A stretch of DNA of 64,000 bases from NCBI GenBank assembly GCA_963666285.1, contig OY762711.1. One strand, written 5' to 3'. Source of the stretch: Sedimentisphaerales bacterium. GTDB lineage: Bacteria > Planctomycetota > Phycisphaerae > Sedimentisphaerales > SM23-30. Both the position numbers and the translations under genes were made by a program. Position 1 is the stretch's first letter. Each line of letters opens with the position of its first letter. Of this stretch, positions 16,905 to 55,288 are shown piece by piece. The notes below the pieces were generated by a model. The model was not told the DNA's origin. It searched no databases and saw only the letters and a program-made list of their open reading frames with translations.

Positions 16905-17034
16905 CATATAGTTAACTCTCGAGTTTTTAAGTTGCAAAAGCCTTCTTGCAGCACTTTCTGTCAAAAAGAAGCATAAGACGCAATGTTGAGCTCTCAAAAG
17001 TGTGCCATGCTATGATGCGAAGCATAAACCGCAC
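16905..17034 (+). repeat. R-family intergenic repeat, copy R1 (short form: head of module A + tail of module B)
   Basis: AGTTAACTCTC..GTTTTTAAGTTGCAA... ...GTGCGCCATGC.ATGATGCGAAGCATAAACCGCAC shared with R3, R5 and R6. Confidence 0.55.
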
Positions 17035-17080
17035 AACATATTCTCTTTCCCTTATCGATCCAACTCACTATAATATACAA

Positions 17081-18244
17081 ATGCAACCTGCCAGAGTAAT
17101 ACTTCATATAGACATGGACGCTTTCTACGCTTCTGTTGAACAATTGGATTTTCCTAACCTGAAAGGAAAACCGGTTCTTGTAGGAGGTTCACCTCAACAA
17201 AGAGGAGTTGTTGCAGCCTGTTCATACGAAGCTCGAAAGTTTAACGTCCGCTCTGCAATGCCAATGTCTCAGGCAATTAAGCTTTGTCCAAGTGCTATTA
17301 TGCAGCCGGTGAGAATGGACCGGTATATCGAAATCTCCAGGCAAATCCACAATATATTCCATCAATATACTCCGGATGTCGAAAAGCTGTCAATTGACGA
17401 AGCTTTCCTGGATGTTACCGGATGCCAAAAACTTTTTGGCAATGCCGAATCAATCGGAAAACAGATAAAGTCGGATATTAAAAATACAGTCGGCCTTACC
17501 GCCTCTGTTGGTATTGCTCCTAATAAATTCCTGGCCAAACTCGCATCTGACCTTGACAAACCTGATGGCTTTGTTGTGATTACCGAAGATAATAAACAAA
17601 AAATACTGGACCCGCTTCCGGTATCAAAAATATGGGGGATCGGCAAAGTCACAAACGATGCCTTAAATCGTTTAGGTATCCAAACCGTAGAACAACTCAG
17701 AACCACTCCACCAAATACCCTGGCTTTGGTATTCAAAAACAGAGTTGACAAAATACTAAAATTAGCCCATGGCATAGATAACAGACCGGTTGAAACTTAT
17801 TCAGAGGCAAAAAGCTTCTCTGCCGAAGAAACTTTTGCCGCAGACATAATGGACAAAGATACCCTGCTCTCTATTTTACATAATCAGGTGGAAGAAGTAT
17901 CACAAAGACTTCGAGCCGAAAAACTACAGGCGCGGACAGTAACGCTAAAACTCAGATACAGCGACTTTAAAACTATTACTCGCAGTTCAACCCTGGAGTC
18001 GCCAACAAACGTAACACAGCTTTTTCTGCTTGAAGCTAAAACCCTTTTCTCAAACTGGTATACTAAATCCGCTGCTCCACTTAGACTCATCGGGTTCGGA
18101 GCCTCTGGAATTTCTCCGCAAGGTTCCGGTCAGATGATGCTGTTTAACGACCCTGAACAGGAAAAACAGAAGAAAGTCGACAATATCCTCGACAAGATAA
18201 AAGAAAAATTCGGCACAGACAGCCTGAAGAGAGGCGATTTCTAA
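17081..18244 (+). CDS. dinB: DNA polymerase IV (Y-family translesion polymerase)
   Basis: ILHIDMDAFYASVEQ..KPVLVGG...IDEAFLDV motifs. The start is probably MQPARVILHID at 17081; the track ORF extends upstream through repeat-derived sequence. Confidence 0.8.
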   Translation: MQPARVILHIDMDAFYASVEQLDFPNLKGKPVLVGGSPQQRGVVAACSYEARKFNVRSAMPMSQAIKLCPSAIMQPVRMDRYIEISRQIHNIFHQYTPDVEKLSIDEAFLDVTGCQKLFGNAESIGKQIKSDIKNTVGLTASVGIAPNKFLAKLASDLDKPDGFVVITEDNKQKILDPLPVSKIWGIGKVTNDALNRLGIQTVEQLRTTPPNTLALVFKNRVDKILKLAHGIDNRPVETYSEAKSFSAEETFAADIMDKDTLLSILHNQVEEVSQRLRAEKLQARTVTLKLRYSDFKTITRSSTLESPTNVTQLFLLEAKTLFSNWYTKSAAPLRLIGFGASGISPQGSGQMMLFNDPEQEKQKKVDNILDKIKEKFGTDSLKRGDF

Positions 18245-18307
18245 AACACCTTTCTTCAAACTATCCTTGCTCATTCATACATACGCTCATCTCTCCTCTT
18301 TCATTAA

Positions 18308-18651
18308 TTACTCAAAGTGACCGATTTTACACTTTTTATTGCTGTTTACTTTCGCATTTTTCAAGTTGCAATGAACGCCTAAAAGAGCCTTCTTGTTATA
18401 GTTTGAATTAAATATACTTTCGAGATTTAACCTCGAAAATGATAAAAATAATCCAATCTTCATTCACAAGGCCCTGTTCTGACCTTTGCGGATAACGTTG
18501 AACAGTCAAAAGTACGAAAGCGTACTTGCTGTAACACAATTTAATGCAAAATTGTTACATTAATGATTTAATTAGCTTGCCGCTTTGCGGCATTCCTGTC
18601 AAGTCCTGATTAAAAGTTGTCACTTTCCGTTTCTATTTCCTATTGTATTTT
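18308..18651 (+). repeat. R-family repeat, copy R2 (modules A+B+C), truncated by the IS3 insertion
   Basis: TTTACTTTCGCATTTTTCAAGTTGCAA.., ..CACAAGGCCCTGTTCTGACCTTTGCG..GTTGAACAGTCAAAAG.., ..CTGTAACACAATTTAATGCAAAATTGTTACATTAATGATTTAATTAGCTTGCCGCTTTGCGGCA. Confidence 0.55.
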
Positions 18652-18707
18652 GGTGATATATTCCGTAGTGAAGGGAGCCCGGAGGGCGACCGGAACGGAG
18701 GAATATA

Positions 18708-19493
18708 TCACGCCGCGGCATGCACTTCCGCAGGTATACGATACTTCAACGCAACATGCGGTCTACGAGTGTTGTAAAGCTCAATTGCCTGCCTTACTGC
18801 TGCATATACATGAGCCTTTTCCTTAAACGTTTCTTTTAATCCATATTCATATTTCAATATACCATTTAGCCGTTCCGCCTTGGCATTCTCATAGCAATGG
18901 TTCTCTTCGGTCATGCTTATCTGTAATCCATTTCTCTGCAACTTATCAATATATCTGTGACAGCAATACTGACAGCCTCTATCCGAATGGTGAATCGCTT
19001 TACTCCCTTTCGGCAGCTGCTTTATCGCCATCGACAATGCCCTTAAACAACCTTCGGCTTCCAAGCTATCACTACAATCATAACCTACTATCTTGCGGCT
19101 ATAAGCATCCATTACCAATGCCAGATACATAAAACCTTCATTTGTACGTATATATGTTATATCACTTACCAGAGCCTGATTAGCTCCTGTCAGTTCTGCA
19201 TCTTTCAACAAATTATTATAAACCTTAAAACTATGACGACTATTTGTAGTTGTAACATATCGTCTTTTACGCTTTATCAGCTTATCATACTTATCCATAA
19301 GCTCAAAAAAGCGATCACGGCCTATTTCTATACCAACAAGCTCCAGTACTGGACTTATCAACTCCAAAACCTTACGACAGCCTAACTCTGGTTGCAATCT
19401 GCGCTCTGCCTCAACCAGTTCTATAATCAAAGCTTCATCTATAGATTTCTTCTTACGTTCCTTGCGTGCTTTATAGTAGTTTTGCCTGCTCAT
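18708..19493 (-). CDS. IS3-family transposase OrfB (DDE/rve integrase core)
   Basis: 261 aa with rve-type catalytic region ..SDITYIRT..HHSDRGCQY...NAKAERLNG.. Confidence 0.7.
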   Translation of the reverse strand: MSRQNYYKARKERKKKSIDEALIIELVEAERRLQPELGCRKVLELISPVLELVGIEIGRDRFFELMDKYDKLIKRKRRYVTTTNSRHSFKVYNNLLKDAELTGANQALVSDITYIRTNEGFMYLALVMDAYSRKIVGYDCSDSLEAEGCLRALSMAIKQLPKGSKAIHHSDRGCQYCCHRYIDKLQRNGLQISMTEENHCYENAKAERLNGILKYEYGLKETFKEKAHVYAAVRQAIELYNTRRPHVALKYRIPAEVHAAA

Positions 19494-19516
19494 ACCTACA
19501 AGACGACAAAAGCCTG

Positions 19517-19942
19517 CTATCGTCGCCTTTTGGGAACTACCTTCCTGCGGCTTCTGCGAGGCACGTTCAACTGCTGTGTGCTTACTTTTTTTTTGAAAGC
19601 TTCTGGATCGACGCTAACTTCCTCACATAGCTCCTCAAATACTGCTTCATTCAACAAACTCTGCATATGAGTATCTGCTAATGCCTCTTTCAGCTGCTTA
19701 ATCTCAGACTTTAGCTTCTTTATCTGATTCTGCTCTTCTGGTTTTTCCACGCGTATAACCTTTGGTACTAAGTGGTTACGGCCATATTTAATTAGCCATT
19801 TCTTTACTGTCTCGCCACCTGGTATCCCATAATGACGATTAGCTTCCGATATACTACCCAGCTTACCAGATTCCAGATCATTTACAACTTGTAACTTAAA
19901 TGCCTCACTATATCTATTGTTTGCCTTCTTAATTATTGCCAT
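19517..19942 (-). CDS. IS3-family transposase OrfA (HTH)
   Basis: 141 aa, helix-turn-helix N-terminus, leucine-zipper-like middle, basic C-terminus. Confidence 0.7.
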   Translation of the reverse strand: MAIIKKANNRYSEAFKLQVVNDLESGKLGSISEANRHYGIPGGETVKKWLIKYGRNHLVPKVIRVEKPEEQNQIKKLKSEIKQLKEALADTHMQSLLNEAVFEELCEEVSVDPEAFKKKVSTQQLNVPRRSRRKVVPKRRR

Positions 19943-20044
19943 TGCTGTCTCCTGAAAAAGTTACTACATTATTTCTATAATGTGACAACTTATCACAGGA
20001 CCAGACATCCTCCCCTTATGCCTTATCCCTTATCTCTTATGCCT

Positions 20045-20072
20045 CTCAAACCAACCATCGGTCAGTTTGAGT
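20045..20072. terminator. Palindromic hairpin motif (CTCAAAC..ATCGGTCAGTTTGAG) abutting the stop codon of the convergent 20072 gene, preceded by CCTTATG-type heptamer repeats (20014..20041)
   Basis: One of three copies (also 33029..33055 and 44293..44317); probably a bidirectional terminator. Confidence 0.4.
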
Positions 20073-23000
20073 TATTTATTAACCTGATTCATCCATTCAC
20101 TAACCATAAACTCAAAGTCAGCAATAGTAACAAAACAGTCATCGCCGGCAAGCTCCGCTGACAACAGGCAGTTGTCTGGCTCATCTGAAAGCTGCCATTG
20201 CATTGCCAGGATCGCAAAATCGTCCAGCCGAACAAAGCCGTCACCATTCAGGTCTGATGCTATCCTGTTATTGACGTCAATCACACCCTGGCCTGAAAGC
20301 TGCATGACCACACCGTCCCACTCTGCCGTATAAGTATGTGATACTCGAGATTCGATCAGTTCAATATATACTGACGCTATACCGGCATCATCTGTCACTG
20401 CTGTAAATTCCTCTACTGCCCCATCACCATCAGTATCGATACTAAAGATAATTGTCTGGCCGACAATACCGATATTACTATTGGTTAGAACTGCTTCAAG
20501 AACTCCTCCAGCCACATTCGGCGACCAGTTGAATTCTACATTTGCAGCAACCAGAACTGCACCATCAATCACATCTCCAATACCATCATGATCAGAATCC
20601 GCCTGATCTGCATTTGATACTGTCGGGGCATTGTCAAACGCCATTGCCAGCGAATAATCGCCCAGGGTCATCGGCTGACCAACAGAGTTAACATACTCCA
20701 GCAGGGTCATCCACTTTTCCCAACGCTCCAGGTCAACCATATTATTTTCCCTGTTTAACGCATCGGAAACATCACAATATTCCAGCCTATCCAAATCATT
20801 GCAATATCTGGTAGACCACTCGACCTCCTCGATCAGCCAGGTATTCAGCTCTCCTGCCTGAGTAATAGACTGAAGATATTCCAGATAAGTTGCATACCCG
20901 TAATTCTCCGGGTTAACCTGCATATCGGCACTCGCATGAAAAATACCAAAATCATCGAACATCTCGTGATGAGTACCTTCCGGGGTAAACTTGATGCTAT
21001 TCTCCTCGTATGTACTGGCAGAAAAACCGGTAAAATACAACCTTGATACAGCATCACGACTAATCGTATCCGAGGCATTATACGGCGGTACATAAGATAT
21101 GAATGGATTGGCAGCATTGGTCCAGTCAACCTTTGGACTGTTATCAGGATCGGCACCCGAATCTATTATCCACATATCTCCATAATCACCCAACATAGTT
21201 CGCTGGCCGATTCTTAGATATTGATACATCTCTTCGAGGGTAAAACCGCAAGTCTCACATGAGTAGTTATTCAAACTCGAATCATCTGACCAGTCACCAT
21301 TCAAAGTATTATTGGCATGATAAGTGCCATGCTGACCTAACTCAAGTTTTGGGTTAGATATCCTGGCATTCATCCAGCGTATCGGGTCATCATCACCATA
21401 TGCATTCCAGATCTTTCGTGGTATTACCGCCAGAGAGATAGGGGTATTCTTTCCACCTGGTAAATCTAACGGAACCTGGTAACCTGCGGCTGCAGGTTCA
21501 TCTCCAACTCCATTATAACTGTAATTCCTGTTGAGCTCCCATTCTTCCGGACTCAAAATTGCCGCATCAGTCATCGTCTGGGTAAACTCATTCTGAAATA
21601 CTCTGCCAAGTGCATCAATTCGTATTATAAAATGCGTATCGCTATTTGACCAGACAGCCTTTGCCTGCATTGCCTTTCCATATAAATACGGATCAAGCGG
21701 CCCATCAAATATGCCGTCACTATCTGTATCAGTATTATTCAGCGGATCGGAAACATCTCCTCTCCCGTCCTGATCAAAATCCAACTGTTCAAAATTGGGG
21801 ACAAACGGACTGTTATCGTTAACATCCGGTATCCCGTCATTATCATCATCGTCATCTGCCGGGTCACCCACACCGTCCTGATCGTTATCCAGCTGGTCGA
21901 GATAGTTAATACCGCCATCATCGTTCATATCCAGTCGCGGAGCGTTCGGATGAAGCGGTGCATTATCAAAAAGATCAATAATACCGTCCATATCACTGTC
22001 ACCCCGATTTGTAAACAAACCTGAGACTACCGCTTCCTTATTGCCAAATGCAATATCAAGAAAATCATCTTCCAGAGAATTCAGCTGGCCGATCGCCAGA
22101 CCACGAGCCTCGGTACCCTCTGATCCGATAGTACCGGCATACAAAAATTCTGGTGCTCCATTCACATTACCGGTATTAAGCCATAGGTCAACTGTACCGC
22201 TCCATATCCCGGCACTGCCGCCGACCGCAAAATCGGTCATGCCGTCTCCGTTAAGATCGCCGCAATCTATGCTTAGCTGGGTTGTAAATGTTTCTTGACA
22301 GCGGGCATAGGCAAAAGGACGGGTGCCGGTACTGATTTTATTATAAAGCACCGGGCTGAATACGCCGCTGCCGTCATTCAAATATACATATACATAACTG
22401 GCTGCATCGGTCAGCATCAGGTCAACATCTTCATCACCATCCATATCTGCCAGTGCCAGACCGTAGCCGTCAATATTCGAGCTTGACTTAGGCGGATAAT
22501 ACGGCGGAAGCTCAGGATTCGGGGAATAGCCCAGATCCTGCCCGGAGATAAGTATTTCAGGCGTATCCCATATCGGATTACCATAAGCATCATTTCCCAA
22601 ATTACGAAACAGAACAACATCTGCCAATGAATTTTCCGAAGCGGTTATATCACCCGCTATAATATCTATGTCATTATCACCATCAACATCTCCCGCTGCT
22701 ACGGCACAGGATGCCGTACCTGCATCACCAACAAGCAAACCAACTTGAGGAAATCCTGTCGACTGAAAGCTGCCGTCTCCATTGCCCAGGTAAAGATACA
22801 CTTCACCGCTTAGTATCGGCGGACTGGTCAGGGTATAGTCATCACGCATAGTCAAAACAAAGTCTGCATTACCATCATTATTAAAATCAGCTGACGCAAG
22901 ACCGTAAGCATTATGATATGCCTGGTTTATCACAATGCCATTATCTGTAAACGTACCATCGCCATTTCCGGCAAACAGGTGAATATCGCCATATGTATCA

Positions 23001-23194
23001 CCACTGAGTATATCTGGTATGGTATCGTTATTAAAGTCAGCGATATCCATACCAAAAGCCCGGCTTCTACCAGCGATTTCAGCCAGCCGATACTGGTAAA
23101 AACCAGGCTGTAATATATCTGCTGTAACAACAGTACTTGTCATAGCAAACAATAATAACGATATTAAACTGGCATACAAAGACTTCATAGCCAT
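20072..23194 (-). CDS. Large secreted FG-GAP/VCBS-repeat protein with thrombospondin type-3-like Asp-rich repeats and a C-terminal dockerin domain
   Basis: Signal peptide. Repeated ..ADFNNDGNADFV.. FG-GAP motifs, DNDQDGVGDPADDDDDNDGIPD calcium-binding repeats, and a C-terminal dockerin-like DLNGDGFVRLDDFAILAMQW. Confidence 0.6.
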   Translation of the reverse strand: MAMKSLYASLISLLLFAMTSTVVTADILQPGFYQYRLAEIAGRSRAFGMDIADFNNDTIPDILSGDTYGDIHLFAGNGDGTFTDNGIVINQAYHNAYGLASADFNNDGNADFVLTMRDDYTLTSPPILSGEVYLYLGNGDGSFQSTGFPQVGLLVGDAGTASCAVAAGDVDGDNDIDIIAGDITASENSLADVVLFRNLGNDAYGNPIWDTPEILISGQDLGYSPNPELPPYYPPKSSSNIDGYGLALADMDGDEDVDLMLTDAASYVYVYLNDGSGVFSPVLYNKISTGTRPFAYARCQETFTTQLSIDCGDLNGDGMTDFAVGGSAGIWSGTVDLWLNTGNVNGAPEFLYAGTIGSEGTEARGLAIGQLNSLEDDFLDIAFGNKEAVVSGLFTNRGDSDMDGIIDLFDNAPLHPNAPRLDMNDDGGINYLDQLDNDQDGVGDPADDDDDNDGIPDVNDNSPFVPNFEQLDFDQDGRGDVSDPLNNTDTDSDGIFDGPLDPYLYGKAMQAKAVWSNSDTHFIIRIDALGRVFQNEFTQTMTDAAILSPEEWELNRNYSYNGVGDEPAAAGYQVPLDLPGGKNTPISLAVIPRKIWNAYGDDDPIRWMNARISNPKLELGQHGTYHANNTLNGDWSDDSSLNNYSCETCGFTLEEMYQYLRIGQRTMLGDYGDMWIIDSGADPDNSPKVDWTNAANPFISYVPPYNASDTISRDAVSRLYFTGFSASTYEENSIKFTPEGTHHEMFDDFGIFHASADMQVNPENYGYATYLEYLQSITQAGELNTWLIEEVEWSTRYCNDLDRLEYCDVSDALNRENNMVDLERWEKWMTLLEYVNSVGQPMTLGDYSLAMAFDNAPTVSNADQADSDHDGIGDVIDGAVLVAANVEFNWSPNVAGGVLEAVLTNSNIGIVGQTIIFSIDTDGDGAVEEFTAVTDDAGIASVYIELIESRVSHTYTAEWDGVVMQLSGQGVIDVNNRIASDLNGDGFVRLDDFAILAMQWQLSDEPDNCLLSAELAGDDCFVTIADFEFMVSEWMNQVNK

Positions 23195-23260
23195 ACCCTT
23201 TCTGATAAAATCAGCATTCTCTTTTTTAATCTCTCACAAATAATTCGACAGCATTTATTA

Positions 23261-23965
23261 TTAGCGGCGTTTCAGCAGCAATCCGCCAAAACCAAGTAAT
23301 ATCAGAGTCATAGGTTCAGGAACCGGGGAAACATATTCCCACATTACACCGGCAGAACGCATTGATACCCAGCTGCCGTCACTGGAAATTTGTGATACTG
23401 TGTACGTCTGCCCTTCAGTAAGAAGAACTTCCTTGCCTATCAACAGCCAGGCATTATTAGCACCAAGAAAAACTGTACCAACCGGCGGATTCTCTACTGC
23501 TGCCATAGCCATCGCGACTGTTCCGCCATTATTCATATCCACACCTGTATGTACGATCGTATCACCATCATTTTCAACTTCTATGGTACATGTTGTTGAT
23601 AGCGGAGTTGTATCTGGCCAGGTTATATATACGTTATAATACCCTGACTGGCCGCCATCCAGATTTGTTGAATATATACCATTTCCAAAATATCGACCGG
23701 AATCTTCCGGCACATCCCAGTTGTCAACATCCGATCCTGGCGTATAAGAAAAAGTATAAACATCAACCGGATCAGCTACAGTACTTCCATAAGCACTTTG
23801 GCTTGCGGTTAAGCCGGGAGCTGTTCCGGCAGTAGTCGAAAATCGCGGCGTACCGGTAAAATTCGTACTACCCCTGCCGTCACTATACGGCTCGACAATA
23901 AACGCGGCATGAATACTACCAAAAAGAAATAATACCAAAAGTACAACACAAACATAATTTTTCAT
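23261..23965 (-). CDS. PEP-CTERM-anchored secreted protein
   Basis: Signal peptide plus the C-terminal sorting signal VPEPMTLILLGFGGLLLKRR (PEP motif, TM helix, basic tail). Confidence 0.7.
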   Translation of the reverse strand: MKNYVCVVLLVLFLFGSIHAAFIVEPYSDGRGSTNFTGTPRFSTTAGTAPGLTASQSAYGSTVADPVDVYTFSYTPGSDVDNWDVPEDSGRYFGNGIYSTNLDGGQSGYYNVYITWPDTTPLSTTCTIEVENDGDTIVHTGVDMNNGGTVAMAMAAVENPPVGTVFLGANNAWLLIGKEVLLTEGQTYTVSQISSDGSWVSMRSAGVMWEYVSPVPEPMTLILLGFGGLLLKRR

Positions 23966-23998
23966 TTCAAACCTCCAAATTTTTAATAAATATACAAA

Positions 23999-24236
23999 AG
24001 TTAACTCTCATAGTTTTTAAGTTGCAATAACGAAGTGCCTCTGGTAAATCGCCTAAAAGGGCCTTCCTGCAACACTTATGTTTTAAACAAAGCGTGAGAC
24101 GATAGTGAATTATTCCTGATGTCAACGTACATCGGGACACCTTAATTTTTCAATTTTCACTATTCGTTTTTCACTTAATTGGCCCTGTTCAGGCCTTTGT
24201 GTATAATGCTGAACAGTCATAAGTGCGATACCGCAC
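23999..24236 (+). repeat. R-family repeat, copy R3 (modules A+B) with a near-consensus promoter (TTGGCC, 17-bp spacer, TGnTATAAT)
   Basis: ..TTAATTGGCCCTGTTCAGGCCTTTGTGTATAATGCTGAACAGTC.. The flanking CTGTTCAG/CTGAACAG stem shows compensatory changes relative to R5/R6. Confidence 0.55.
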
Positions 24237-24474
24237 AAGAAACTAGGCCAACATATAATATATGTCCGACAAAATAACCTTTTTATAACGGTTATTATTC
24301 TAAATATTTTATTTTTTGATCTGATGAGTGACAAACTAACACTTAATGTCAAGATAGGAATTATAGAGAGAGTGGTGAAATATACTATGACCTAAAACCA
24401 ACAAACTAGTTAATAAGACTTGAAATATTGCCAAAAAACTCAATTTCATTCTTACGGCATTCCTCAACTGTCTG

Positions 24475-24900
24475 CTATTTGGGAAATATCCCTGTCGGCT
24501 CCAGGTTAAATTTCGAAAATGACCTCAGTACAGCCTTTCCCATTCTTTTAAGATATGATACTAGAAGCGGCTGACTGTAATCATGATGGCTTAGCAGACT
24601 CAACGCAAATGCAAGCTGAGTCAGTGAAACATTATAAAATGGCGGATCACATACGATAATATCGAATCTTTCAGTTATCCATTCCGGCTTGAGCAGGTCA
24701 TACCTCCGGTAGCCTCGCAGATCGCTAAACCTTTCATCAATATCGAGTACGGTAACATCAACAGACCTCTCACCTAGCTTCTTACCCAGCATCGGACAGC
24801 AGATACAGCATGGCCTTTCCCAGTTTAACAATAAATCCGCTAATAGTTCCAGTGATTCATCATCGAAAAAGTATTGTTCATTTTTATGATTTTCGTCCAT
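24475..24900 (-). CDS. Compact RsmD/N6-methylase-like putative SAM-dependent methyltransferase (DPPF motif)
   Basis: 141 aa. ..CCICCPMLGKKLG..VTVLDID..FDIIVCDPPFYNV parallels RsmD motif I (DCFAGSGALG), motif II (LIEMD) and motif IV (FVDPPF). Lies 3 nt downstream of the prfH stop. Confidence 0.35.
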   Translation of the reverse strand: MDENHKNEQYFFDDESLELLADLLLNWERPCCICCPMLGKKLGERSVDVTVLDIDERFSDLRGYRRYDLLKPEWITERFDIIVCDPPFYNVSLTQLAFALSLLSHHDYSQPLLVSYLKRMGKAVLRSFSKFNLEPTGIFPK

Positions 24901-24903
24901 AAC

Positions 24904-25530
24904 CTACCTGACCTCTTTAAATTTCTCGCCCCTGAAAACTCGAACCGGGTTACCTCGTTCAAGATTTCCATGCCCGGCCCACCTGCTCTGCTGATTTTCT
25001 GCTTTCATATTATAATTATGCTCTTCCAGCTTTTCATTCAAATTTCGCAAAGCCAGCTTACGGTTCATATGCTGACAGCGGCTACCACTTGCCATTGTCG
25101 AAATTCCAGTCGGCACATGAGTCACCCGTATCGCCGATTCGGTTTTATTAACATGCTGTCCGCCCGGCCCTGATGACCGCATTGTCTCAAATCGAAGGTC
25201 TTTACTGTTCAACTCCAACTCATCCGGCACCTGGCATAACTCAACACCGACAAACCAGTTTTTCCTTTTATGGTTAGGTCGATATTGACTTTGCCCGGTC
25301 CACTGCACTGTACCGGTCCAGCTGTCGATAAGACCAGTAAGCCCCTCCCCTTTAATAGAGATCAAGGCTGACTTAAAAATTTCCGACCGGTTTCCCGGCA
25401 CAAATTCCAATACCTCCGCATTGCCGCCTATCGCCAATACTTCTCTGCAAATAGCTTCAACAATTCTTGCAACAACCCAGCAGCATTCGTCCGGCCCACG
25501 ACCGGATGTAACCTGTAACCAGTATTCCAC
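24904..25530 (-). CDS. prfH: Peptide chain release factor H-like protein (RF-H)
   Basis: 208 aa. GGQ motif SGPGGQHVNKTESAIRVTHVPTGI. The N-terminus LQVTSGRGPDECCWVV resembles E. coli PrfH (LQLSSAQGPEECCLAV). No codon-recognition domain, which is the PrfH architecture. Confidence 0.75.
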   Translation of the reverse strand: MEYWLQVTSGRGPDECCWVVARIVEAICREVLAIGGNAEVLEFVPGNRSEIFKSALISIKGEGLTGLIDSWTGTVQWTGQSQYRPNHKRKNWFVGVELCQVPDELELNSKDLRFETMRSSGPGGQHVNKTESAIRVTHVPTGISTMASGSRCQHMNRKLALRNLNEKLEEHNYNMKAENQQSRWAGHGNLERGNPVRVFRGEKFKEVR

Positions 25531-25551
25531 TAGTATCTCCTCGTAACTGTA

Positions 25552-27327: not shown

Positions 27328-27446
27328 TTTTTGATCTTCTATATATATAAAAAGGATAAATTTCTTTGTTATTTACAAGCCATAATTTTATTAATACTTT
27401 TTGCATATTAAACTCCTGTTACACCCTGGGCTTAAACCCAATATTT

Positions 27447-27480: not shown

Positions 27481-27498
27481 GCCAGTATAAGATATACA

Positions 27499-44207: not shown

Positions 44208-44292
44208 ACTTAATAGCGATTGCAATTCTTCTCTACCTGATTACTCAAGGTGAACAATTTCAAACTTTATTCTTTTTAACATCTAACCCCTT

Positions 44293-46078: not shown

Positions 46079-46756
46079 ATGAGAAAAATTTTAATGGCGA
46101 TTGTTGTTATGGCCCTTTCCATGTCTGCCCATGCCGGATATTACATTGCCGGTGAATATAATGGATGGGATGCCGGTGCAAATGAAATGACCGATAATGG
46201 TGACGGCACTTACTCATACACTGTTACTGGTTTAGACGCCGGCCAGCGACAGGAATTCAAAATCACCGACGGCACATGGGACTGGAATTTCCCAGGACCA
46301 AACAGCTGGTACTATACCGATGCCAACGGTGAAGTCACTATCACTTTCAATACAAACGAAGTTAATGACGGATGGTCAACAAATATCAACCGCATACAGC
46401 TCAGTACAGATCCCGGCACATGGACAATCGCCGGTAGTTTCCAGGGCTGGGACAATGCTAACGCCGCTACCGCTATGACATCAATTGGCGGCGGTATCTA
46501 CTCTCTTTCCCAGACTCTCGATGCTGGTACTTACTATTTTAAGGCTGTCGTTACCGGCACCTGGGATTCTATCAGCTGGGACAACCGCTCTGTCGGTACT
46601 GACAATATTACCCTGGACCTTACCGAAACTCAGGATGTAATTTTCTACGTTGACGCTTTTAGCGGAACAATCAAAACTGAAGTTGTTCCGGAACCGGCTA
46701 CTATGGCTCTTCTCGGCTTTGGCGCTTTCGCTATCCACCGCCGCAGAAAAGCATAA
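46079..46756 (+). CDS. PEP-CTERM-anchored secreted protein
   Basis: GGAGG Shine-Dalgarno 7 nt before the ATG at 46079. Signal peptide MRKILMAIVVMALSMSAHA; C-terminal VPEPATMALLGFGAFAIHRRRKA. Confidence 0.7.
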   Translation: MRKILMAIVVMALSMSAHAGYYIAGEYNGWDAGANEMTDNGDGTYSYTVTGLDAGQRQEFKITDGTWDWNFPGPNSWYYTDANGEVTITFNTNEVNDGWSTNINRIQLSTDPGTWTIAGSFQGWDNANAATAMTSIGGGIYSLSQTLDAGTYYFKAVVTGTWDSISWDNRSVGTDNITLDLTETQDVIFYVDAFSGTIKTEVVPEPATMALLGFGAFAIHRRRKA

Positions 46757-46819: not shown

Positions 46820-46833
46820 ATAATCAAAATATC

Positions 46834-47038
46834 AGTTTGCTTTCGCAGTTTTCAAGTTGCAAAAATCGCCTAAAAGGGCCTTCCTGCAACGCTTTGAGTT
46901 AAATATACTTTCGAGAATTAGCTCGGAAATACATTTAAATATAAAGTTTCTCATTCACAAGGCCTTGTTCTGGCCTTTGCGTGTAATGTTGAACAGTCAA
47001 AAGTGCGCCATGCATATGATGCGAAGCATAAACCGCAC
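46834..47038 (+). repeat. R-family repeat, copy R5 (modules A+B)
   Basis: TTTGCTTTCGCAGTTTTCAAGTTGCAAAAATCGCCTAAAAGGGCCTTCCTGCAAC ... CACAAGGCCTTGTTCTGGCCTTTGCGTGTAATGTTGAACAGTCAAAAGTGCGCCATGCATATGATGCGAAGCATAAACCGCAC. Confidence 0.55.
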
Positions 47039-47048
47039 TATCAAACTT

Positions 47049-48983
47049 TCACTTTAACCAGTATCTCAAAATCCAACTCAAATCGCCAACATCAATAACA
47101 CCATCTGCTGCACAATCCATACCACCTTCAAAATAATCACTTCCAGCTCCTGCCAGCCAGCTCTCGGCCAATGCACTAAAATCTATCAGGTCGATCTTAA
47201 CATCACCGTTAACATCACCGCATATCTCCAGGCTGCCAGAAACCTCCAGTTCAAGTATAGTTGTATATGTCTGCGTCCCGCCCGGCCGCCCGACTATACG
47301 AACCTCATCGCCCGTCACCGGTTCAAATGATATCGTTATTACCTGATACATCTTATCCTTATCCAGAAGCTCGGAAAAACTCACTCCCTCAACAGACTTC
47401 TGCTCACCTTCTTGATATATCTCAACATGCATATCTTCAAAATGACCGCCCCGACGCTCGCTTGTTCTATTGTAATCATTAATACTTGCCCAGACTGTAT
47501 CACCTTCATAAAATGTCACCGCATCAAAAACAACTTTCCTCGAAAACTTAACGCCATAATAATCCTCCGCACGACCAATCCCCGCTGAGCTGTAACTGCG
47601 ATACGGCCTCACCCCGCTATAACTGTTATCCTTTATCCCATCAATAATCCCTCCCAGGTTATACAGGTCATTACCCGTATTATAATTCGCCACCATCGCC
47701 ACCGGCACAACTTCCAGACCTGCATCTAATGCTTCTATCACCAATCCATCAGGCCCGGCCGGTTCAACTTTCTCCGGTACATCTGCCGATTCTCCCAAAT
47801 CTGATATTATATAATTATCTCCTTCGACAAACCCGCCGTTCGATGCAATATTTTCCTCTGCAAGATCAGCTATCCGGTTCGCCAGTACCGTTATATCTTC
47901 ATATTGCGGCATGCCCACTTCCGGATCAGGCAAATACCGCCTGTATATATTCTGATATGTATTACTGCAAACATCGCTGCCAAACAAATCCTGCGGCAGA
48001 CCGCTCCGGCCATTCATCACACCAAGTATACCGCCGGCTATTGCCGGGTTACAGTCACAATCCCAGCCTGCCAGCACACCAACTCGCACTGTCTCTTTAT
48101 AATCTCCCTGGCCATACAGCAGACACATAACAGTCGCTCCCAGATTTACCGTCGACTCAATCCAGTTATAATACCGGCCATTAGCATAGCTGCCCCCGCC
48201 GTAATAATCATACAGCTTACGCCTGGTAGCCCGCCAGTCTGCCGCACCATCTGCCATATCTTCTTCATACCAGCTCACAACATCACTTACAACCCGGTAG
48301 CTCCTGCTGCTGACCGGCATAACTTCCATCGCCTTCGCTACCAGCACATTAACATCACTCTCAAAAAATGCATACGAATACATCGCCACCTGAAATTGTG
48401 CCGCATGTACCGCAAAACCATCATTCGATACTCCGGCAAACTTTGCTGCCAGACCTATCGCCTGCTGCGTCATTCCGGGACTTACAACCCCTAAAACTTC
48501 AGTTGTTATCTGGCTGTCAATCGAATACCAGTGCTGGTTATATCCCCGACTGCCGGTCGCTGGCGGCATAAACCCATCGCCCATCAAAAACAATGCCTGG
48601 CGATTTGATATATATATACCGTTGGTCGTTATATGAGTCAGCCATTGAGCCGCTATATCCTCACCACTAACCCCAAAACCGTGTTCTTCCAATATATGCA
48701 ATGCCACATACTCAACATCAGTATCATCATCACCCGGCCAGCTCTCACCCGGAACTTTCAAAATCCATCCAATGCTATCTGAAGGATTCCCTGTTGCTCC
48801 GGAATATTTCCCTTCGGTACTTCGCCCAGCCATATTCGCAACTATCTGGCCCAGCCACATACCTTCCGCCTTATCCACCAGCTCAGCTCTCGTCAGCTCC
48901 TCTTCTGCCAGACAAGACGCACCCAAAATCACCGCTAAAACCAGACCCAAAATTACATTTCTTCTTTCTCTCTTCATAGCCAT
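47049..48983 (-). CDS. Secreted ADP-ribosylglycohydrolase-family-like protein with a C-terminal dockerin domain
   Basis: Signal peptide; ..LAGWDCDCNPAIAGGILG.. resembles the ARH C-terminal metal-site motif (GGDTDTnaAIAGal). C-terminal dockerin-like ..CGDVNGDVKIDLIDFSALAESWL. Confidence 0.45.
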   Translation of the reverse strand: MAMKRERRNVILGLVLAVILGASCLAEEELTRAELVDKAEGMWLGQIVANMAGRSTEGKYSGATGNPSDSIGWILKVPGESWPGDDDTDVEYVALHILEEHGFGVSGEDIAAQWLTHITTNGIYISNRQALFLMGDGFMPPATGSRGYNQHWYSIDSQITTEVLGVVSPGMTQQAIGLAAKFAGVSNDGFAVHAAQFQVAMYSYAFFESDVNVLVAKAMEVMPVSSRSYRVVSDVVSWYEEDMADGAADWRATRRKLYDYYGGGSYANGRYYNWIESTVNLGATVMCLLYGQGDYKETVRVGVLAGWDCDCNPAIAGGILGVMNGRSGLPQDLFGSDVCSNTYQNIYRRYLPDPEVGMPQYEDITVLANRIADLAEENIASNGGFVEGDNYIISDLGESADVPEKVEPAGPDGLVIEALDAGLEVVPVAMVANYNTGNDLYNLGGIIDGIKDNSYSGVRPYRSYSSAGIGRAEDYYGVKFSRKVVFDAVTFYEGDTVWASINDYNRTSERRGGHFEDMHVEIYQEGEQKSVEGVSFSELLDKDKMYQVITISFEPVTGDEVRIVGRPGGTQTYTTILELEVSGSLEICGDVNGDVKIDLIDFSALAESWLAGAGSDYFEGGMDCAADGVIDVGDLSWILRYWLK

Positions 48984-50108: not shown

Positions 50109-50278
50109 ATAATTTTAATTCTCACGAACTGAATTAGCCAATACTACAATCTATCTTCACAACAATCTTATTCTTTGCACCGGCTTAAACAAAATATTAG
50201 CCGCAATCCGAAGCATTTAAAAAATCATCTAAGCGGCACCACAAGAAATTCTAACTATTCAGTTAGAGTTTCATTATT

Positions 50279-50510
50279 AGTTTACTTTCGCAGTTTTTAA
50301 GTTGCAATAACAAAGTGCCTCTGGTAAATCGCCTAAAAGGGCCTTCCTGCAACGCTTTGAATTTAAACAAAATGTGAGACGAAAGTCGAACACCTTAATT
50401 TTTCACTATTCATTATTCATTTTTCACTTAATTGGCCCTGTTCTGGCCTTTGCGTGTAATGTTGAACAGTCAAATGTGCGCCATGCATATGATGCAAAGC
50501 ATAAACCACA
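50279..50510 (+). repeat. R-family repeat, copy R6 (modules A+B, about 90% identical to R3)
   Basis: TTTACTTTCGCAGTTTTTAAGTTGCAATAACAAAGTGCCTCTGGTAAATCGCCTAAAAGGGCCTTCCTGCAAC ... TTGGCCCTGTTCTGGCCTTTGCGTGTAATGTTGAACAGTCAAATGTGCGCCATGCATATGATGCAAAGCATAAACCAC. Confidence 0.55.
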
Positions 50511-50582
50511 TTATTACATTCTCTGTTTTTATATCTTGTAGTGTTTTCTTTCTCCAACTCACCTGTTCTACTATCTAGCGGC

Positions 50583-52517
50583 TTACAAGCCACTTAGCCA
50601 GTTCTCCAGTAGAATTGCCAGGTCAAACATATCAACCCTGCCGTCACCGTTGATATCACCAGCATATCTTGTAGCACCAACACCTATATGGAGAATCGGA
50701 TAACCGTAGCTGTCGCTCATTTGCCATGTATCTGCGAAATCCCAGCCGGTGAAATTTGACTCATCTGCCATTTCCTCGCTGGTTAGCCCCGTTCCGCCTC
50801 CAATGCTGTTGCATCCTGATCTGTTTTTATCCCAAAATGATTCTGTAATAGATGTATTATCTGGAATAAGACCAGTCAGGCCACCTGCAACATTTGTACT
50901 GCTATCGTCAATTCCTATAAACTTTCCGGCAAAATGACAATGAATAATCTCCCCATCATATGTGTTGTCTCCGACCAGGCCGCCAGTAAATCTTGGAAAA
51001 GCACAATCTATAGCTTCAATATCCATGGTAGAATAGCTGTCTGTGATAATCCCTTCATAGCCTTCAACACCAATGTTTTGCCCCACCAGTCCGCCAATAC
51101 ACTCAACACTATCTGTCAAGTTGGAAATAAATTTTCCTTGTGTATAACATCTATTGATGCTGCCCAAATTCTTTCCTACCAGTCCTCCAATAGACATATT
51201 TGCTGAATATAAACCACTTGGCGTTTCCAAAGTACCGTTAACGCAACAGTCTTCGATCGTTCCTTCATTCCATCCAACCAAAATGCCGGCTCCTTCATAT
51301 CCCGTTCCCGGAAAATTAAAATTAACATTTTCCAGGTACAGATTCTTTATTACAGCTGACGAAGTTGTCCCATAAAACAAACCATTACTTCCAGTCTTAA
51401 TTCCCATGTTATGAATAGTGTAACCATTTCCATCAAATACTCCCTGAAACCAACCTCCACCATGACCATCTTCCGGAACTCCTATACTCGGCATCGCCAC
51501 TGATACTGGAAAGTAAATATCCTGCGTCATAATGAGATATTTGTCCTTGCTCCAACCGCTATAAAAATATGCCAACTCTATCAGATCATCTACCCTGGAG
51601 ATCTGATAAGGGTCATCGGCAGTTCCGCTGCCGCCGCTGAAAGTACCTGTCGAGCAGACATTACCAACTCCATCTCCATCACTATCTGCCTGGTCCGGAT
51701 TTGGCCTGGAAGGACAATTATCAAGACAATCTATCAGGCCATCACCGTCACTGTCACCACAGGTCTCGGAAATAGTATTATCGCCGCCGTCTGTATAGTC
51801 TCCTGTAATATTTGAAGGAGTATTCTGACAAATAACGCAATCTGTTATTGTTATATTTGTTCCGCTTTCGCAATGGATACCGCCCGCATTAGTATTGGTT
51901 GCTATATTGTCAACAAAAATGCAGCTGGTGATCGTCACCGTTGAGCTGCTCGTATTACGCATCGCGCCGCCATTATTTTCTGATATGTTTGCAGTGAACG
52001 TGCAATTTAAAATAGTCACCACAGCACTGTTTCGATTTAACATTCCACCACCACAGTAAAAAGTATTTTCATTGAAAGTACAGTTAGTGATGGTTACTGA
52101 AGAGCTGTCATTCAATATCCCGCCGCCATAATTGGCTGTATTAGATTCAAAAATACAGTTGGCAATCTCAACGGTAGAGTTGAGATTATACATCCCGCCG
52201 CCCCGATATGCATCACCTTTGGTTATGGTAAATCCTTCCAGCCTTATTCCTTCTGTACAATCCTGACAGAAGATAACTCTATCGGTCCCGTTGCCATCAA
52301 TTATGGTGATATCTTTACCTGCCCCGATAAGCTCAACACCATCTTTCAGGACAATATTCTCGACATACGTTCCCGCTGCCACATTAACCGTATCTCCGCT
52401 AGCTGCGGCATCAATCGCCGTCTGGATAGTTGTATAATCATCGGGTACGTTTATTGTACTGGCATTTAAAATAGGACCGCACAAACATAATATTAAAAGT
52501 ACTTGTGTTAATTTCAT
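50583..52517 (-). CDS. Secreted right-handed parallel beta-helix repeat protein with a TSP3-like Asp-rich segment and a C-terminal dockerin
   Basis: Signal peptide. Periodic ..N.TF..N.A..GGG..N.. beta-helix turns; DSDGDGLIDCLDNCPSRPNPDQADSDGDG; C-terminal GDINGDGRVDMFDLAILLENWL. Confidence 0.6.
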   Translation of the reverse strand: MKLTQVLLILCLCGPILNASTINVPDDYTTIQTAIDAAASGDTVNVAAGTYVENIVLKDGVELIGAGKDITIIDGNGTDRVIFCQDCTEGIRLEGFTITKGDAYRGGGMYNLNSTVEIANCIFESNTANYGGGILNDSSSVTITNCTFNENTFYCGGGMLNRNSAVVTILNCTFTANISENNGGAMRNTSSSTVTITSCIFVDNIATNTNAGGIHCESGTNITITDCVICQNTPSNITGDYTDGGDNTISETCGDSDGDGLIDCLDNCPSRPNPDQADSDGDGVGNVCSTGTFSGGSGTADDPYQISRVDDLIELAYFYSGWSKDKYLIMTQDIYFPVSVAMPSIGVPEDGHGGGWFQGVFDGNGYTIHNMGIKTGSNGLFYGTTSSAVIKNLYLENVNFNFPGTGYEGAGILVGWNEGTIEDCCVNGTLETPSGLYSANMSIGGLVGKNLGSINRCYTQGKFISNLTDSVECIGGLVGQNIGVEGYEGIITDSYSTMDIEAIDCAFPRFTGGLVGDNTYDGEIIHCHFAGKFIGIDDSSTNVAGGLTGLIPDNTSITESFWDKNRSGCNSIGGGTGLTSEEMADESNFTGWDFADTWQMSDSYGYPILHIGVGATRYAGDINGDGRVDMFDLAILLENWLSGL

Positions 52518-52573
52518 TTTTATATCCTTTTGTTTTATCTTTCTTTTATTTTCCTGATCTCAATATCTGTTTC

Positions 52574-55024
52574 TTACAAACCGCTCAGCCAGTTTTCTGC
52601 AAATACCGCAAGGTCTGCCAGATCTACTTTGCCGTCCCCGGAAAAATCGCCGGTGATCTGTTCAGAGCTATGGAATTCATACGCACCCAAGTCAATAGGC
52701 AATATAATTCCAGTTCCATACAATATTAATTCTTGTGGCATTCCTGTATTTTCTACAGTTAGAATATCAATTATGCGAGGGTTACCATAATAGTCATATG
52801 CTGATGCTGTCATATCTAAACCTAAAACAGTGCTGTTGCCGGCATCAATACAAGGCGAAGCGGGTAATAACCTCAAGTCACCATTGTCATCATTAGCTGA
52901 TTCATCTATATCTTCGGTTTCCGGGTCATCTCCCCATCCGTCACCTCCATCATCCGGATTACGCACATACATCGGGTCACAGTCTATATTACCACCGCCA
53001 TTAGTACCCCAGGAATTATCCCATTGGCTGCCGTTTTCGCCGCAGCCGGAGATATTACAATATGAAATAACAGGTATTGAACCTGAATCACTATTATAAA
53101 ATTCGCTGGCGCTGTTAGAATCTGTATCCAAAAATATACAATTAGTTATAGCCGGACTGCTGTCTGTATTATATATCCTGTTGCCATTAGTGCTTGCGGT
53201 ATTGCCGAAAAAGTTACAGTTGGTTACGGTTGGATTAGATGATGAATTATATATTCCGCCGCCGGAATCTGCCATATTACCGGTAAAGATACAGCTGGTT
53301 ACTGCTGGAGAAGATGATGAATTGTATATTCCACTGCCGGAGTCTGACCTGTTGGCGGTAAAGACACAATTGCATACTTCCGGTGTAGATTGGAAATTGT
53401 ATATTCCGCTGCCAGAGTCCGACCTGTTGGCGATAAAGGTGCAATTATTAACTGTCGGGGAGGAGTCTTTATTATACATTCCACTGCCATTATAAGATGC
53501 TGTATTGTTGCTAAAGGTGCATCTGTTAACTGTTGTTGAGCTGGTAGATAAAAAATATATTCCACTACCGTAATATGCGCTATTGCCGCTAAAGATACAA
53601 TTTCCCATCGTAAGAGAAGATTGGTAATTATACATTCCACCGCCGCTATCGTCTGTCACATTGTCTTTGAAAGTGCAGGATTCCATAGTTATAGTGCAAT
53701 TAAAATTGAATACGCCACCCCCATAATAGCTTGCTATGTTGTCTTTGAAAGTGCAGGATTCCATAGTTGGAGTGCTACTAGCATTGTTTACGCCACCACC
53801 ACGATTTGCAGAATTATTAGTGAATGTACAATTTGTAATAGTTGGGCTGGAAAAAATATTAAATATTCCACCGCCATCATAACTTACTGTATTATCCTGG
53901 AATGTACAGTTAGTTATTGTTGGCGATGAATTATTAATGTATATACCGCCACCACAGTAAAGGGTATCGACCATATGGACCGTTCCGGAGCCATTTGTTA
54001 TTACAAAGCCGCTGATTACTGTATTGGAACCCTCTTTGCTATTACAAGTGATAACACTGCCGTTTGCTCCGCCATCTATTATTGTTGCTGCTATTGTATC
54101 TGGATCTTCCGGGGCGCTGCTTTGCAGGGTTATAGCCTTGCCGCTCATATTAAGATTTTCGACATATGTACCAGGCATAACCGTTAAAATATCGCCGTCT
54201 GCCGACGCATTAATTGCTTCCTGGATGCTTCGATAATCAGCCGAATTATTTGTGTCAATATCGATACGGTAATCGAGGTTATTTCCGCCGCCGTCTGTAT
54301 AATCACCTGTGATATTTTGCGGAAAATTGCGAGCCAGCGTACAGCCGGTAATCGTAACACTTGTTCCACCTTCACAAAAGATGCCGCCTGCATTAGTATT
54401 GGTCGCTATATTGTCAGTAAAAATGCAGTCGGTAATCGTAACTGTTGAACTGCTCGTATTGCGTATTGCACCACCGTTATTTTCTGAGGTATTTGCAGTG
54501 AACGTGCAGTTTGAAATAGTAACCTCAGCACTGTTCCGATTTAACATTCCACCGCCGCAGTAATAAGTATTTTCGTTAAAGGTACAGTTAGTAATAGTTG
54601 TAGAAGAGCTGTCATTGAGCATCCCGCCGCCGTATTTGGCAGTATTTGATTCGAAAATGCAGTTTGCAATCTCAATTGAAGAATTAAGATTATACATCCC
54701 GCCGCCCCGATATACATCACCATTTTTTATCGTAAATCCTTCCAGCTTTGTTCCTTCTGTACAATCTTCACAGAAGATAACTCTATCGGTCCCGTTGCCA
54801 TTAATTATGGTGACATCTTCACCTGCTCCGATAAGCTCAACACCATCTTTCAGGACAATATTCTCAATATACGTACCAGCCGCCACATTAATAGTGTCAC
54901 CACTAACCGCGGCATCAACCGCCGCCTGGATGGTCCCATAATCCTCCGGCACATGTATCACAGCAGAAAATAGTGAACTAACACATAAAAGTAAAAACGC
55001 ACAGGTAAATACCGACTTCTTCAT
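52574..55024 (-). CDS. Secreted right-handed parallel beta-helix repeat protein with a C-terminal dockerin (tandem paralog of 50583..52517)
   Basis: N-terminal 250 aa about 80% identical to the neighbouring gene. About 20 beta-helix coils (NCTF.DN.A..GGG..N); C-terminal GDFSGDGKVDLADLAVFAENWL. Confidence 0.6.
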   Translation of the reverse strand: MKKSVFTCAFLLLCVSSLFSAVIHVPEDYGTIQAAVDAAVSGDTINVAAGTYIENIVLKDGVELIGAGEDVTIINGNGTDRVIFCEDCTEGTKLEGFTIKNGDVYRGGGMYNLNSSIEIANCIFESNTAKYGGGMLNDSSSTTITNCTFNENTYYCGGGMLNRNSAEVTISNCTFTANTSENNGGAIRNTSSSTVTITDCIFTDNIATNTNAGGIFCEGGTSVTITGCTLARNFPQNITGDYTDGGGNNLDYRIDIDTNNSADYRSIQEAINASADGDILTVMPGTYVENLNMSGKAITLQSSAPEDPDTIAATIIDGGANGSVITCNSKEGSNTVISGFVITNGSGTVHMVDTLYCGGGIYINNSSPTITNCTFQDNTVSYDGGGIFNIFSSPTITNCTFTNNSANRGGGVNNASSTPTMESCTFKDNIASYYGGGVFNFNCTITMESCTFKDNVTDDSGGGMYNYQSSLTMGNCIFSGNSAYYGSGIYFLSTSSTTVNRCTFSNNTASYNGSGMYNKDSSPTVNNCTFIANRSDSGSGIYNFQSTPEVCNCVFTANRSDSGSGIYNSSSSPAVTSCIFTGNMADSGGGIYNSSSNPTVTNCNFFGNTASTNGNRIYNTDSSPAITNCIFLDTDSNSASEFYNSDSGSIPVISYCNISGCGENGSQWDNSWGTNGGGNIDCDPMYVRNPDDGGDGWGDDPETEDIDESANDDNGDLRLLPASPCIDAGNSTVLGLDMTASAYDYYGNPRIIDILTVENTGMPQELILYGTGIILPIDLGAYEFHSSEQITGDFSGDGKVDLADLAVFAENWLSGL

Positions 55025-55228
55025 AATCCATTCCTCACACTAAACTTACAGCTTCTCATTTTCCTTAAAGCCCAAATTGTTATTCCCAGAACAAGTTATT
55101 ATAACATAATATCGGCATTTTTATAAGACGATTCCAGTTCAATATACCATCGCCGCACTAATACCGAAAAAAAAGAGCCCGCCATTTCTGACGAGCTCTC
55201 ATATACATAAATATTATTATGCTGTCTT

Positions 55229-55288
55229 AGTTTACTTTCGCAGTTTTTAAGTCACATAAATCGCCTAAAATAGCCTTCCTGCAACACC
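55229..55288 (+). repeat. R-family repeat, copy R7 (module A only)
   Basis: TAGTTTACTTTCGCAGTTTTTAAGTCACATAAATCGCCTAAAATAGCCTTCCTGCAAC. Confidence 0.45.

Follow-up and report, generated by a model that had tools for sequence, protein, structure and literature searches.

A family of short intergenic repeats populates a 64-kb stretch of contig OY762711.1 from the Sedimentisphaerales bacterium assembly GCA_963666285.1 (hereafter, the window, that is, the whole stretch that was analyzed). The core of this family, a unit formed by two sequence modules denoted A and B, is identified here as a non-autonomous DNA transposon of the miniature inverted-repeat transposable element (MITE) type, a reading to which we assign a probability of about 0.8. 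The A-B unit is discrete, extends over 85–237 bp from 5′-GTTWAC... to ...CGYAC-3′, has no coding capacity and lies within the MITE size range (less than ~500 bp). A MITE family was one of the candidates put forward in an earlier note on this DNA, and it is backed by target-site duplications (TSDs), imperfect terminal inverted repeats (TIRs), comparison of a filled with an empty insertion site, and absence from the syntenic loci of relatives.

The window was surveyed by repeat search, by blastn of each copy against the window, and by nhmmer with hidden Markov models of the modules. All three methods recovered repeats at 16.9, 18.3, 24.0, 32.7, 46.8, 50.3, and 55.2 kb, with nhmmer E-values of 1e-10 to 1e-24 that exclude chance; every window copy lies on the + strand, and no further copies are present in the 64 kb on either strand. 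Module A occurs six times, in addition to a short form in the first copy (R1); module B occurs four times, in addition to a 3′ remnant in R1; and a third module, C, occurs three times. The earlier note had described seven co-oriented copies of a single A-B-C element. The seven sites and their common strand stand, but the 32.7-kb locus consists of two copies of another repeat without A or B, and the three modules therefore do not make up one element: C belongs to a separate repeat, and the 18.3-kb copy (R2) is an A-B unit nested within a C-type unit. The A-B copies, at a density of ~1 per 9 kb, share 84–96% pairwise identity in blastn comparisons and fall into two subfamilies. The window itself has ~42% G+C, a strongly negative GC skew on the + strand, and the majority of its genes on the − strand. 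Its Pfam content is typical of the Planctomycetes–Verrucomicrobia–Chlamydiae (PVC) group (PEP-CTERM, prepilin N-methyl, dockerin, beta-helix, FG-GAP, and rtcR/rtcA/rtcB with a tRNA array), and the named homologs of its dinB gene come from Planctomycetota, Phycisphaerae, and Anaerohalosphaeraceae.

With multiple alignment used to fix the boundaries, each unit being taken to run from the G of GTTWAC through the final base of the terminal hairpin ...CGYAC, the target-site duplications that the earlier note had proposed looking for are present. They are perfect over 5 bp in R2 (TTGCT at 18339–18343 and 18526–18530), R5 (TATCA at 46830–46834 and 47039–47043), R6 (TATTA at 50275–50279 and 50512–50516), and an 85-bp copy in a relative, L008 (TATTA on both sides). 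Another copy in a relative, L003, is flanked by GAATA and GTATA (4/5) and R3 by CAAAA and AAGAA (3/5); the duplication of R1 is not intact, with 1/5 matches at the homologous boundaries and CATAT found at offsets −1/+2. When the left flank of one copy was paired with the right flank of another as a control, the mean was 1.7/5 and none of the 30 pairings was perfect. A perfect 5-mer match has a chance probability of 0.0015, and at least four perfect matches among seven copies have a probability of 1.6e-10, or of 1.2e-6 if each boundary is given one base of leeway.

The 182-bp copy R2 (18344..18525, +) lies within a C-type unit, in which a segment termed mod0 (18308..18343, +) forms the part to its left and module C (18526..18596, +; two hairpins, TGTAACAC..GTTACA and TGCCGC-TTT-GCGGCA) the part to its right. 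In blastn, the left flank (R2 positions 9–46) matches 32894–32931 with 97% identity and the right flank (R2 positions 227–293) matches 32925–32990 with 95.5% identity, the two matches overlapping by 7 nt (TTGCTGT) on the 32.9-kb side, as expected for one target copy. There, mod0 is joined directly to C (...TTATTGCTGTAACAC...) with a single TTGCT, whereas in R2 the A-B unit interrupts this mod0-C sequence and has TTGCT on each side. Given the contiguous flanks and the single TTGCT, the sequence at 32894–33000 is a paralogous empty site and R2 is the filled one. The C-type unit, present three times in the window, is built of mod0, C, a 7-nt repeat array, and the hairpin CTCAAACTGGCCATCGGTCAGTTTGAG; module C belongs to this separate repeat, which is found with tRNA genes and at gene ends. 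In the unit that houses R2, the right side of C is truncated by an insertion sequence (IS) of the IS3 family (18597..20007, −), which sits next to R2 inside the C-type unit; the remainder (20008..20078, +; the heptamer array and hairpin CTCAAACC..GGTCAGTTTGAG) abuts the stop codon of gene 20072–23194 (−). This IS is complete, with orfA (HTH_Tnp_1), orfB (rve), TG...CA ends, inverted repeats of 26–27 bp (TGTCAAGTCCTG... / ...CAGGACCAGACA), and a 3-bp TSD, TCC.

The unit starts with 5′-GTT(T/A)AC TTTCGCAG TTTTYAAGTTGCAA and finishes with TTGAACAGTCAAAAGT(G/A)CG-loop-CG(C/T)AC-3′, giving a left-end signature of GTTWACTTTCGCAGTTTTYAAGTTGCAA and a right-end signature of TTGAACAGTCAAAAGTRCG...CGYAC. 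The two ends, each of ~28 bp, form an imperfect inverted repeat, as seen when the left-end sequence, GTTTACTTTCGCAGTTTTTAAGTTGCAA, is set against the reverse complement of the right end of R2, GTACGCTTTCGTACTTTTGACTGTTCAA. In ungapped, end-anchored comparisons, the TIR of R2 matches at 18/28 positions, a value reached by none of 2000 shuffles (p<0.0005); the corresponding values are 13/28 for R3 (p=0.0125) and 12/28 for L003 (p=0.08). In R1, R5, R6, and the copy in relative L009, 22 nt are inserted in the terminal-hairpin loop, and this insert resembles the left end (GTTTATGCTTCGCA vs GTTTACTTTCGCA). The GCGAAGC mini-hairpin, which the earlier note regarded as part of the element, is confined to this insert, being present in R1, R5, and L009, replaced by GCAAAGC in R6, and absent from R2, R3, and L003; it is hence a feature of a subfamily and not of the core.

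Besides R2, the window contains four A-B copies and one fragment, all on the + strand. R1 (16911..17034) is a degenerate 124-bp copy with internal deletions, located between an HD-domain gene and the dinB promoter; it keeps both ends and has the long loop in the right-end hairpin. A 432-aa open reading frame (ORF), 16946..18244, overlaps the 3′ half of R1, but its Pfam domain begins only at residue 55 and a conserved ATG lies at 17081, so the overlap is a start-codon artefact. The deposited dinB protein (P0121, 414 aa) likewise has its start codon within R1; the start conserved with relatives is ATG 17081 (387 aa). This ATG is preceded by TATAAT plus 6 nt, an arrangement suggestive of a leaderless or near-leaderless mRNA. 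R3 (24000..24236, 237 bp) is of the subfamily marked by an 18-nt insert in A and by a "link2" interior; its left end is 34 nt upstream of the start codon (ATG) of gene 23261–23965 (−). R5 (46835..47038, 204 bp) occupies a convergent spacer, 20 nt past the terminator of gene 46034–46756; the stop codon of gene 47049–48983 (−) is 10 nt away. R6 (50280..50511, 232 bp), of the R3 subfamily, is likewise in a convergent spacer. R7 (55230..55290) is a solo left end, module A alone, between the stop codon of a prolyl-oligopeptidase gene (55315–57423, −) and the conserved terminator of that gene (55173–55200). Individual copies may affect neighboring genes.

Copies with conserved ends and variable interiors, the pattern expected of an element recognized by a transposase, were found in four other assemblies, L001, L003, L008, and L009. 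That in L003 (ERZ21869602) is 232 bp long, with recognizable ends and a different interior, and that in L008 (ERZ21831251) is the 85-bp mini copy with the perfect TSD. In L009 (ERZ22147072), an A-B copy is cut by the end of a 9.8-kb contig; this contig, the sole yield of a search among relatives with an IS transposase, happens to carry the copy. In L001, a 1.1-kb contig from an "Opitutales" metagenome-assembled genome, module A occupies the extreme end and abuts the ATG of an opposite-strand lpxD-like gene. Both L001 and L009 thus terminate inside the element, a common effect of repeats on assemblies. The closest relative, L006, is collinear with the window over 7.8–37 kb, yet its dinB abuts rtcB and it has no copy of A, B, or C. 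L005 is collinear over 46–57 kb and has nothing at the positions of R5 and R6 and no module A in the spacer orthologous to that of R7, which keeps the prolyl-oligopeptidase terminator and, for the next gene, the TGnTATAAT promoter; the spacers of L005 and L006 are too diverged for an empty site to be defined at the base level. In total, the long contigs of relatives (L003–L006 and L008; ~108 kb) hold two copies, those of L003 and L008. Given that copies are missing from syntenic loci, the family is lineage-specific and has expanded in the source genome. Exact-pattern scans yielded no matches to modules A and B in viral contigs or to module B in metagenome contigs, and one match to module A in genome contigs (L001); a match to module A in a metagenome contig (L002) was rejected as a chance match inside an ORF. 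There was no blastn match in plasmid and phage collections, Rfam searches at gathering and E-value thresholds returned only tRNAs and noise, and nothing specific was found in the literature on MITEs in Planctomycetes or on MITEs with 5-bp TSDs.

Compared with L006 (9884–10000, 11134–11136), the window has two extra gene blocks, at 13968–17060 and 18245–27498. The first (~3 kb) follows tRNA-Met; the second (~9.2 kb) lies between dinB and rtcB and contains genes for an FG-GAP protein and an N6-adenine methyltransferase together with prfH-like and PcfJ-like genes. R1–R3 are all located in or at the edges of these blocks. The L009 contig is rich in mobile genes at 2580–6756, where IS630-like and IS1380-like insertions apparently split a group II intron reverse transcriptase (RVT_1 + GIIM); an IS4/5-like element lies at 8040–9560.

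The mechanism suggested by the TSDs and TIRs is that a DDE-type transposase encoded elsewhere in the genome would bind the ends and move the element in trans, with a 5-bp staggered cut. Insertion duplicates 5 bp at AT-rich intergenic sites (TATCA, TATTA, TTGCT). R2 landed inside the mod0-C unit, with the IS3-family element arriving later in the same unit. Copies have since decayed, R1 through internal deletions and R7 to a solo left end, and the interiors have diversified with the ends being kept. Several points weigh against this interpretation. R1 and R3 lack clean TSDs. The TIR is weak (~64% at best) and interrupted in the long-loop subfamily, the copies of which are not significant when anchored at the tips. 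Comparison with the IS3-family element of the window, the IS1380-like IS of L006, and the IS4/5-like IS of L009 revealed no autonomous element or transposase with matching ends; the inverted repeats of these three candidate parents are all unrelated to those of the unit. The copy number and strand distribution are those of the 64-kb window and the contigs of relatives only, and a cut-and-paste MITE alone does not predict a single orientation for the six window copies.

This orientation was the basis for the suggestion in the earlier note that the repeats could be replication-oriented elements. The + strand, which carries all six window copies, is the C-rich (lagging-sequence) strand, and the copies in L008, L009, and L001 are on the C-rich side as well, whereas that of L003 is on the G-rich strand. 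The resulting 9 of 10 copies from five assemblies correspond to a two-sided binomial p of ~0.02, with six of these copies coming from one neighborhood; the skews of L001 and L009 are based on 1–5 kb, and the effects of gene orientation and replication direction are confounded. In L008, the dinB locus is inverted relative to the window and the element is still on the C-rich strand; L003 is the counter-example. The strand bias is suggestive, and the replication-oriented reading survives in this weakened form. A TSD-forming MITE with strand-specific insertion or retention is a possibility that we consider rather unlikely.

The bias would also be explained, through its link to replication, by an element of the REP/BIME type or a hairpin element derived from IS200/IS605 (PATE), which an HUH (Y1) transposase or RAYT would move in single-stranded form. 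Consistent with such an origin are the 9 of 10 copies on the C-rich strand, the terminal hairpin with a compensatory change at one end of the unit, the REP-like location of copies at gene 3′ ends and in convergent spacers, and the insertion of an IS3-family element in the neighboring repeat, given that IS1397, also of the IS3 family, targets BIMEs. HUH/Y1 elements, however, insert 3′ of a fixed tetra- or pentanucleotide and make no target-site duplication. The presence of 5-bp TSDs of varying sequence and the lack of a fixed target, the left flanks being variable (…ATCA, …ATTA, …TGCT, …AATA, …AAAA) with no conserved 5′ target, disfavor both REP/RAYT and IS200/IS605 mechanisms; targeting of the IS200/IS605 type was rejected for want of a conserved flanking tetranucleotide. 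Moreover, the hairpin is found at the right end only, whereas both ends of such elements have subterminal hairpins, no Y1 transposase is present among the 30 window proteins scanned, and the L003 copy lies on the G-rich strand. The GTAG or CGTC tag included in the REP definition (PMC3733652) does not occur in the element. On balance, we regard this explanation as improbable. Slighter still are the prospects of a family of small-RNA or antisense-RNA genes, another candidate of the earlier note, in which a sigma-70 promoter in module B fires on the + strand and the transcript starts with the terminal hairpin and runs antisense into the 3′ end of a convergent gene. In its favor, R3 carries TTGGCC-17-TATAAT, the B end of R2, R5, R6, and L003 faces the stop codon of an opposite-strand gene, 10–110 nt away, and three imperfect stems (the A stem and terminal hairpin of R1 and the link hairpin of R5) are, by reading, kept by G-U pairing only on the + strand. 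These features are set against a −10 hexamer that is not conserved, with R5 and R6 failing the promoter scan, against native promoters that look like TGnTATAAT, and against the lack of a + strand terminator after B. The RNAalifold covariation term and the shuffle tests do not favor an RNA, the fold z-scores are inconsistent, there is no Rfam match, and TSDs together with an empty site are not expected of genes that spread by duplication. The least probable alternative is that the repeats are duplicated regulatory spacers, promoter/terminator cassettes copied along with neighboring genes by recombination or gene conversion. This may well fit the C-type unit, which on the − strand lies upstream of tRNA and Band_7 genes and is tandemly duplicated with the tRNA gene, and the window copies are in gene blocks missing from relatives. 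For the A-B copies, by contrast, the flanking genes are unrelated to one another, the boundaries are base-sharp with TSDs, and one copy interrupts another repeat. In an integron attC/cassette array, an R''-L''...L'-R' imperfect palindrome with a GTTRRRY core would stand behind every one of several co-oriented single-gene cassettes; this reading was rejected, as the copies are 1.4–23 kb apart with several genes on both strands between them and there is no GTTRRRY/RYYYAAC pair at the ends.

The promoter claim itself deserves a closer look, module B having been described as a near-perfect sigma-70 promoter in R3 and a good one in R6, with outward promoters envisaged as a property of the family. 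The sigma-70 scan calls R3 only (10/12, no TG extension) and no promoter in R2, R5, or R6; matches of such quality are frequent, with 29 found in a 7.8-kb region vs 19.3 expected by chance. The −10 hexamer is TGTAAT in R5 and R6 (no A at position 2), GATAAC in R2 and L009, and absent in R1, L003, and L008; TGTAAT and GATAAC fail at the two −10 positions that matter most. Promoters conserved between the window and relatives consist of TGnTATAAT followed, after 0–10 nt, by ATG. Because the −10 is not conserved and the native promoters are different, module B is not a conserved promoter: the call for R3 holds, that for R6 does not, and with a good −10 in a single copy the notion of outward promoters as a family feature is not supported. 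R3 may act as an accidental + strand promoter. In module A, a sigma-54 promoter (GGCAC...TTGCA) was rejected by reading, the spacing being 2 nt too long. A − strand sigma-70 promoter in this module (TTGCAA-17-TAAACT) was rejected with a score of 8/12, below the threshold of the scan, and a −10 not conserved at position 2. The right-end hairpin followed by TTTTGAC, which might serve as a weak terminator for − strand transcripts, was not called by the terminator scan.

Nor did the coordinated change reported for the CTGTTC..GAACAG pair bear scrutiny. In R3, the helix grows from 6 to 8 bp through two changes that each affect one side only; nowhere is a pair changed on both sides, and the covariation score is reached by 206/500 shuffles. 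The terminal hairpin shows one compensatory pair (GTGCG-loop-CGCAC vs GTACG/CGTAC), G-C to A-U in R2 and L003, and the TTGA-ACAG-TCAA hairpin of the right end shows another, A-U to G-C in L003; covariation in these right-end hairpins is not significant (61/500 shuffles, six sequences). The RNAalifold covariation term, the check proposed along with the claim, is +0.4 on both strands, which is no support, and the fold z-scores are −2.6 and −3.4 for R5 and −0.3 and −1.0 for R6. The hairpins are real and adequately explained as part of the inverted-repeat terminus. More generally, the hairpins, GCGAAGC, and the promoter-like hexamers appear to be by-products of inverted-repeat ends and subfamily inserts rather than conserved functional RNA or promoter modules.

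The two C-type units without a MITE, R4a (32651..32780, +; diverged, 74%) and R4b (32894..33062, +; mod0-C, heptamer array, and hairpin), flank the tRNA gene 32794–32866 and, on the − strand, lie upstream of the Band_7 gene and of this tRNA, respectively. The CTCAAACTGGCCATCGGTCAGTTTGAG hairpin is also found at 44290–44320 and abuts the stop codons of the − strand genes at 20072 and 44318. The C-type unit could be a promoter/terminator cassette on the − strand. Arrays of 7-nt repeats occur in the window at 20011–20045, 32745–32780, 32993–33030, 41393–41425, and 44277–44295 and in relatives at 12113–12145 of L005 and 12110–12130 of L004. They are purine-rich on the coding strand (GGTATTA, GCATAAG, GGTTAGA), are located just past stop codons or hairpins, and might be protein- or RNA-binding sites in 3′ untranslated regions. 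An RNA-repair neighborhood (27499–35801) includes rtcB, a GFA-domain gene, rtcA, ten tRNA genes in two − strand clusters, the Band_7 gene, and the sigma-54 activator rtcR; the tRNA match at 33784–33848 spans model positions 4–67 only.

Other repeats in the window are of different kinds. A direct repeat of ~160 bp (37663–37825 and 42774–42935, 90–96% identity, 5.1 kb apart) brackets PAPS-reductase and phosphodiesterase genes and adjoins a 23S-rRNA-IVP/bAvd-like four-helix-bundle gene (37296–37646); it could have arisen by duplication or mark the two ends of a mobile segment. It is unlike the template/variable repeat pair of a diversity-generating retroelement, since the differences between copies are not adenine-specific. 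Two adjacent genes for beta-helix surface proteins share 300 bp at 82% identity (51776–52143 vs 54280–54647), and the larger contains 75-nt tandem coding repeats (53195–53881); they look like a paralogous, repeat-rich adhesin-like pair.

Among known bacterial MITEs, Correia/NEMIS elements of Neisseria and RUP of Streptococcus pneumoniae are multi-copy, non-coding, intergenic elements of ~100–250 bp with TIRs and a TSD. The A-B unit resembles them in having conserved ends, variable interiors, some promoter-like hexamers, and decayed or truncated copies. It differs from Correia and RUP, which duplicate TA, in its variable, AT-rich 5-bp TSD, in its ends (GTTWACTTTCGCAG...), which have no sequence similarity to theirs, in far less perfect TIRs, and in having no known parent IS, and its host is an uncultured PVC-type (Phycisphaerae-like) bacterium, unlike Neisseria and S. 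pneumoniae. A 5-bp TSD is shared with Tn3-derived TIMEs, the IS1380 family (ISEcp1), the IS2 group of IS3, and IS1634. The ends of Tn3 and TIMEs begin with GGGG and measure 38 bp, those of IS1380 begin with CCTAG, as do those of the IS1380-like IS of L006, and those of the IS3 family are TG...CA. None of these resembles GTTWAC.../...CGYAC, and assignment to a family is consequently not possible. BOX of S. pneumoniae and BIMEs of Escherichia coli share with the repeats described here the A/B/C modular look, the richness in hairpins, and the location in transcribed intergenic spacers. In BOX and BIMEs there are no TSDs, and BIMEs are made of REP palindromes with RAYT partners; unlike both, the present mosaic is one of nested insertion, with a MITE inside another repeat, followed by an IS3-family IS.

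With this finding, a MITE family becomes known from an uncultured, poorly studied PVC/Phycisphaerae-like lineage, and the family marks recently rearranged regions of the source genome. In practical terms, the family breaks short-read assemblies (L001 and L009 end inside it) and misleads gene callers (the deposited dinB start is within R1), and the 5-bp TSD together with the defined pair of ends offers a handle for the search for the parent transposase. No new kind of biology is opened unless the strand bias proves to be genome-wide. If so, it would imply replication-coupled targeting of, or strong transcription-linked selection on, a DDE-type MITE in a PVC bacterium or, alternatively, an unrecognized strand-specific transposition chemistry that also makes target-site duplications.

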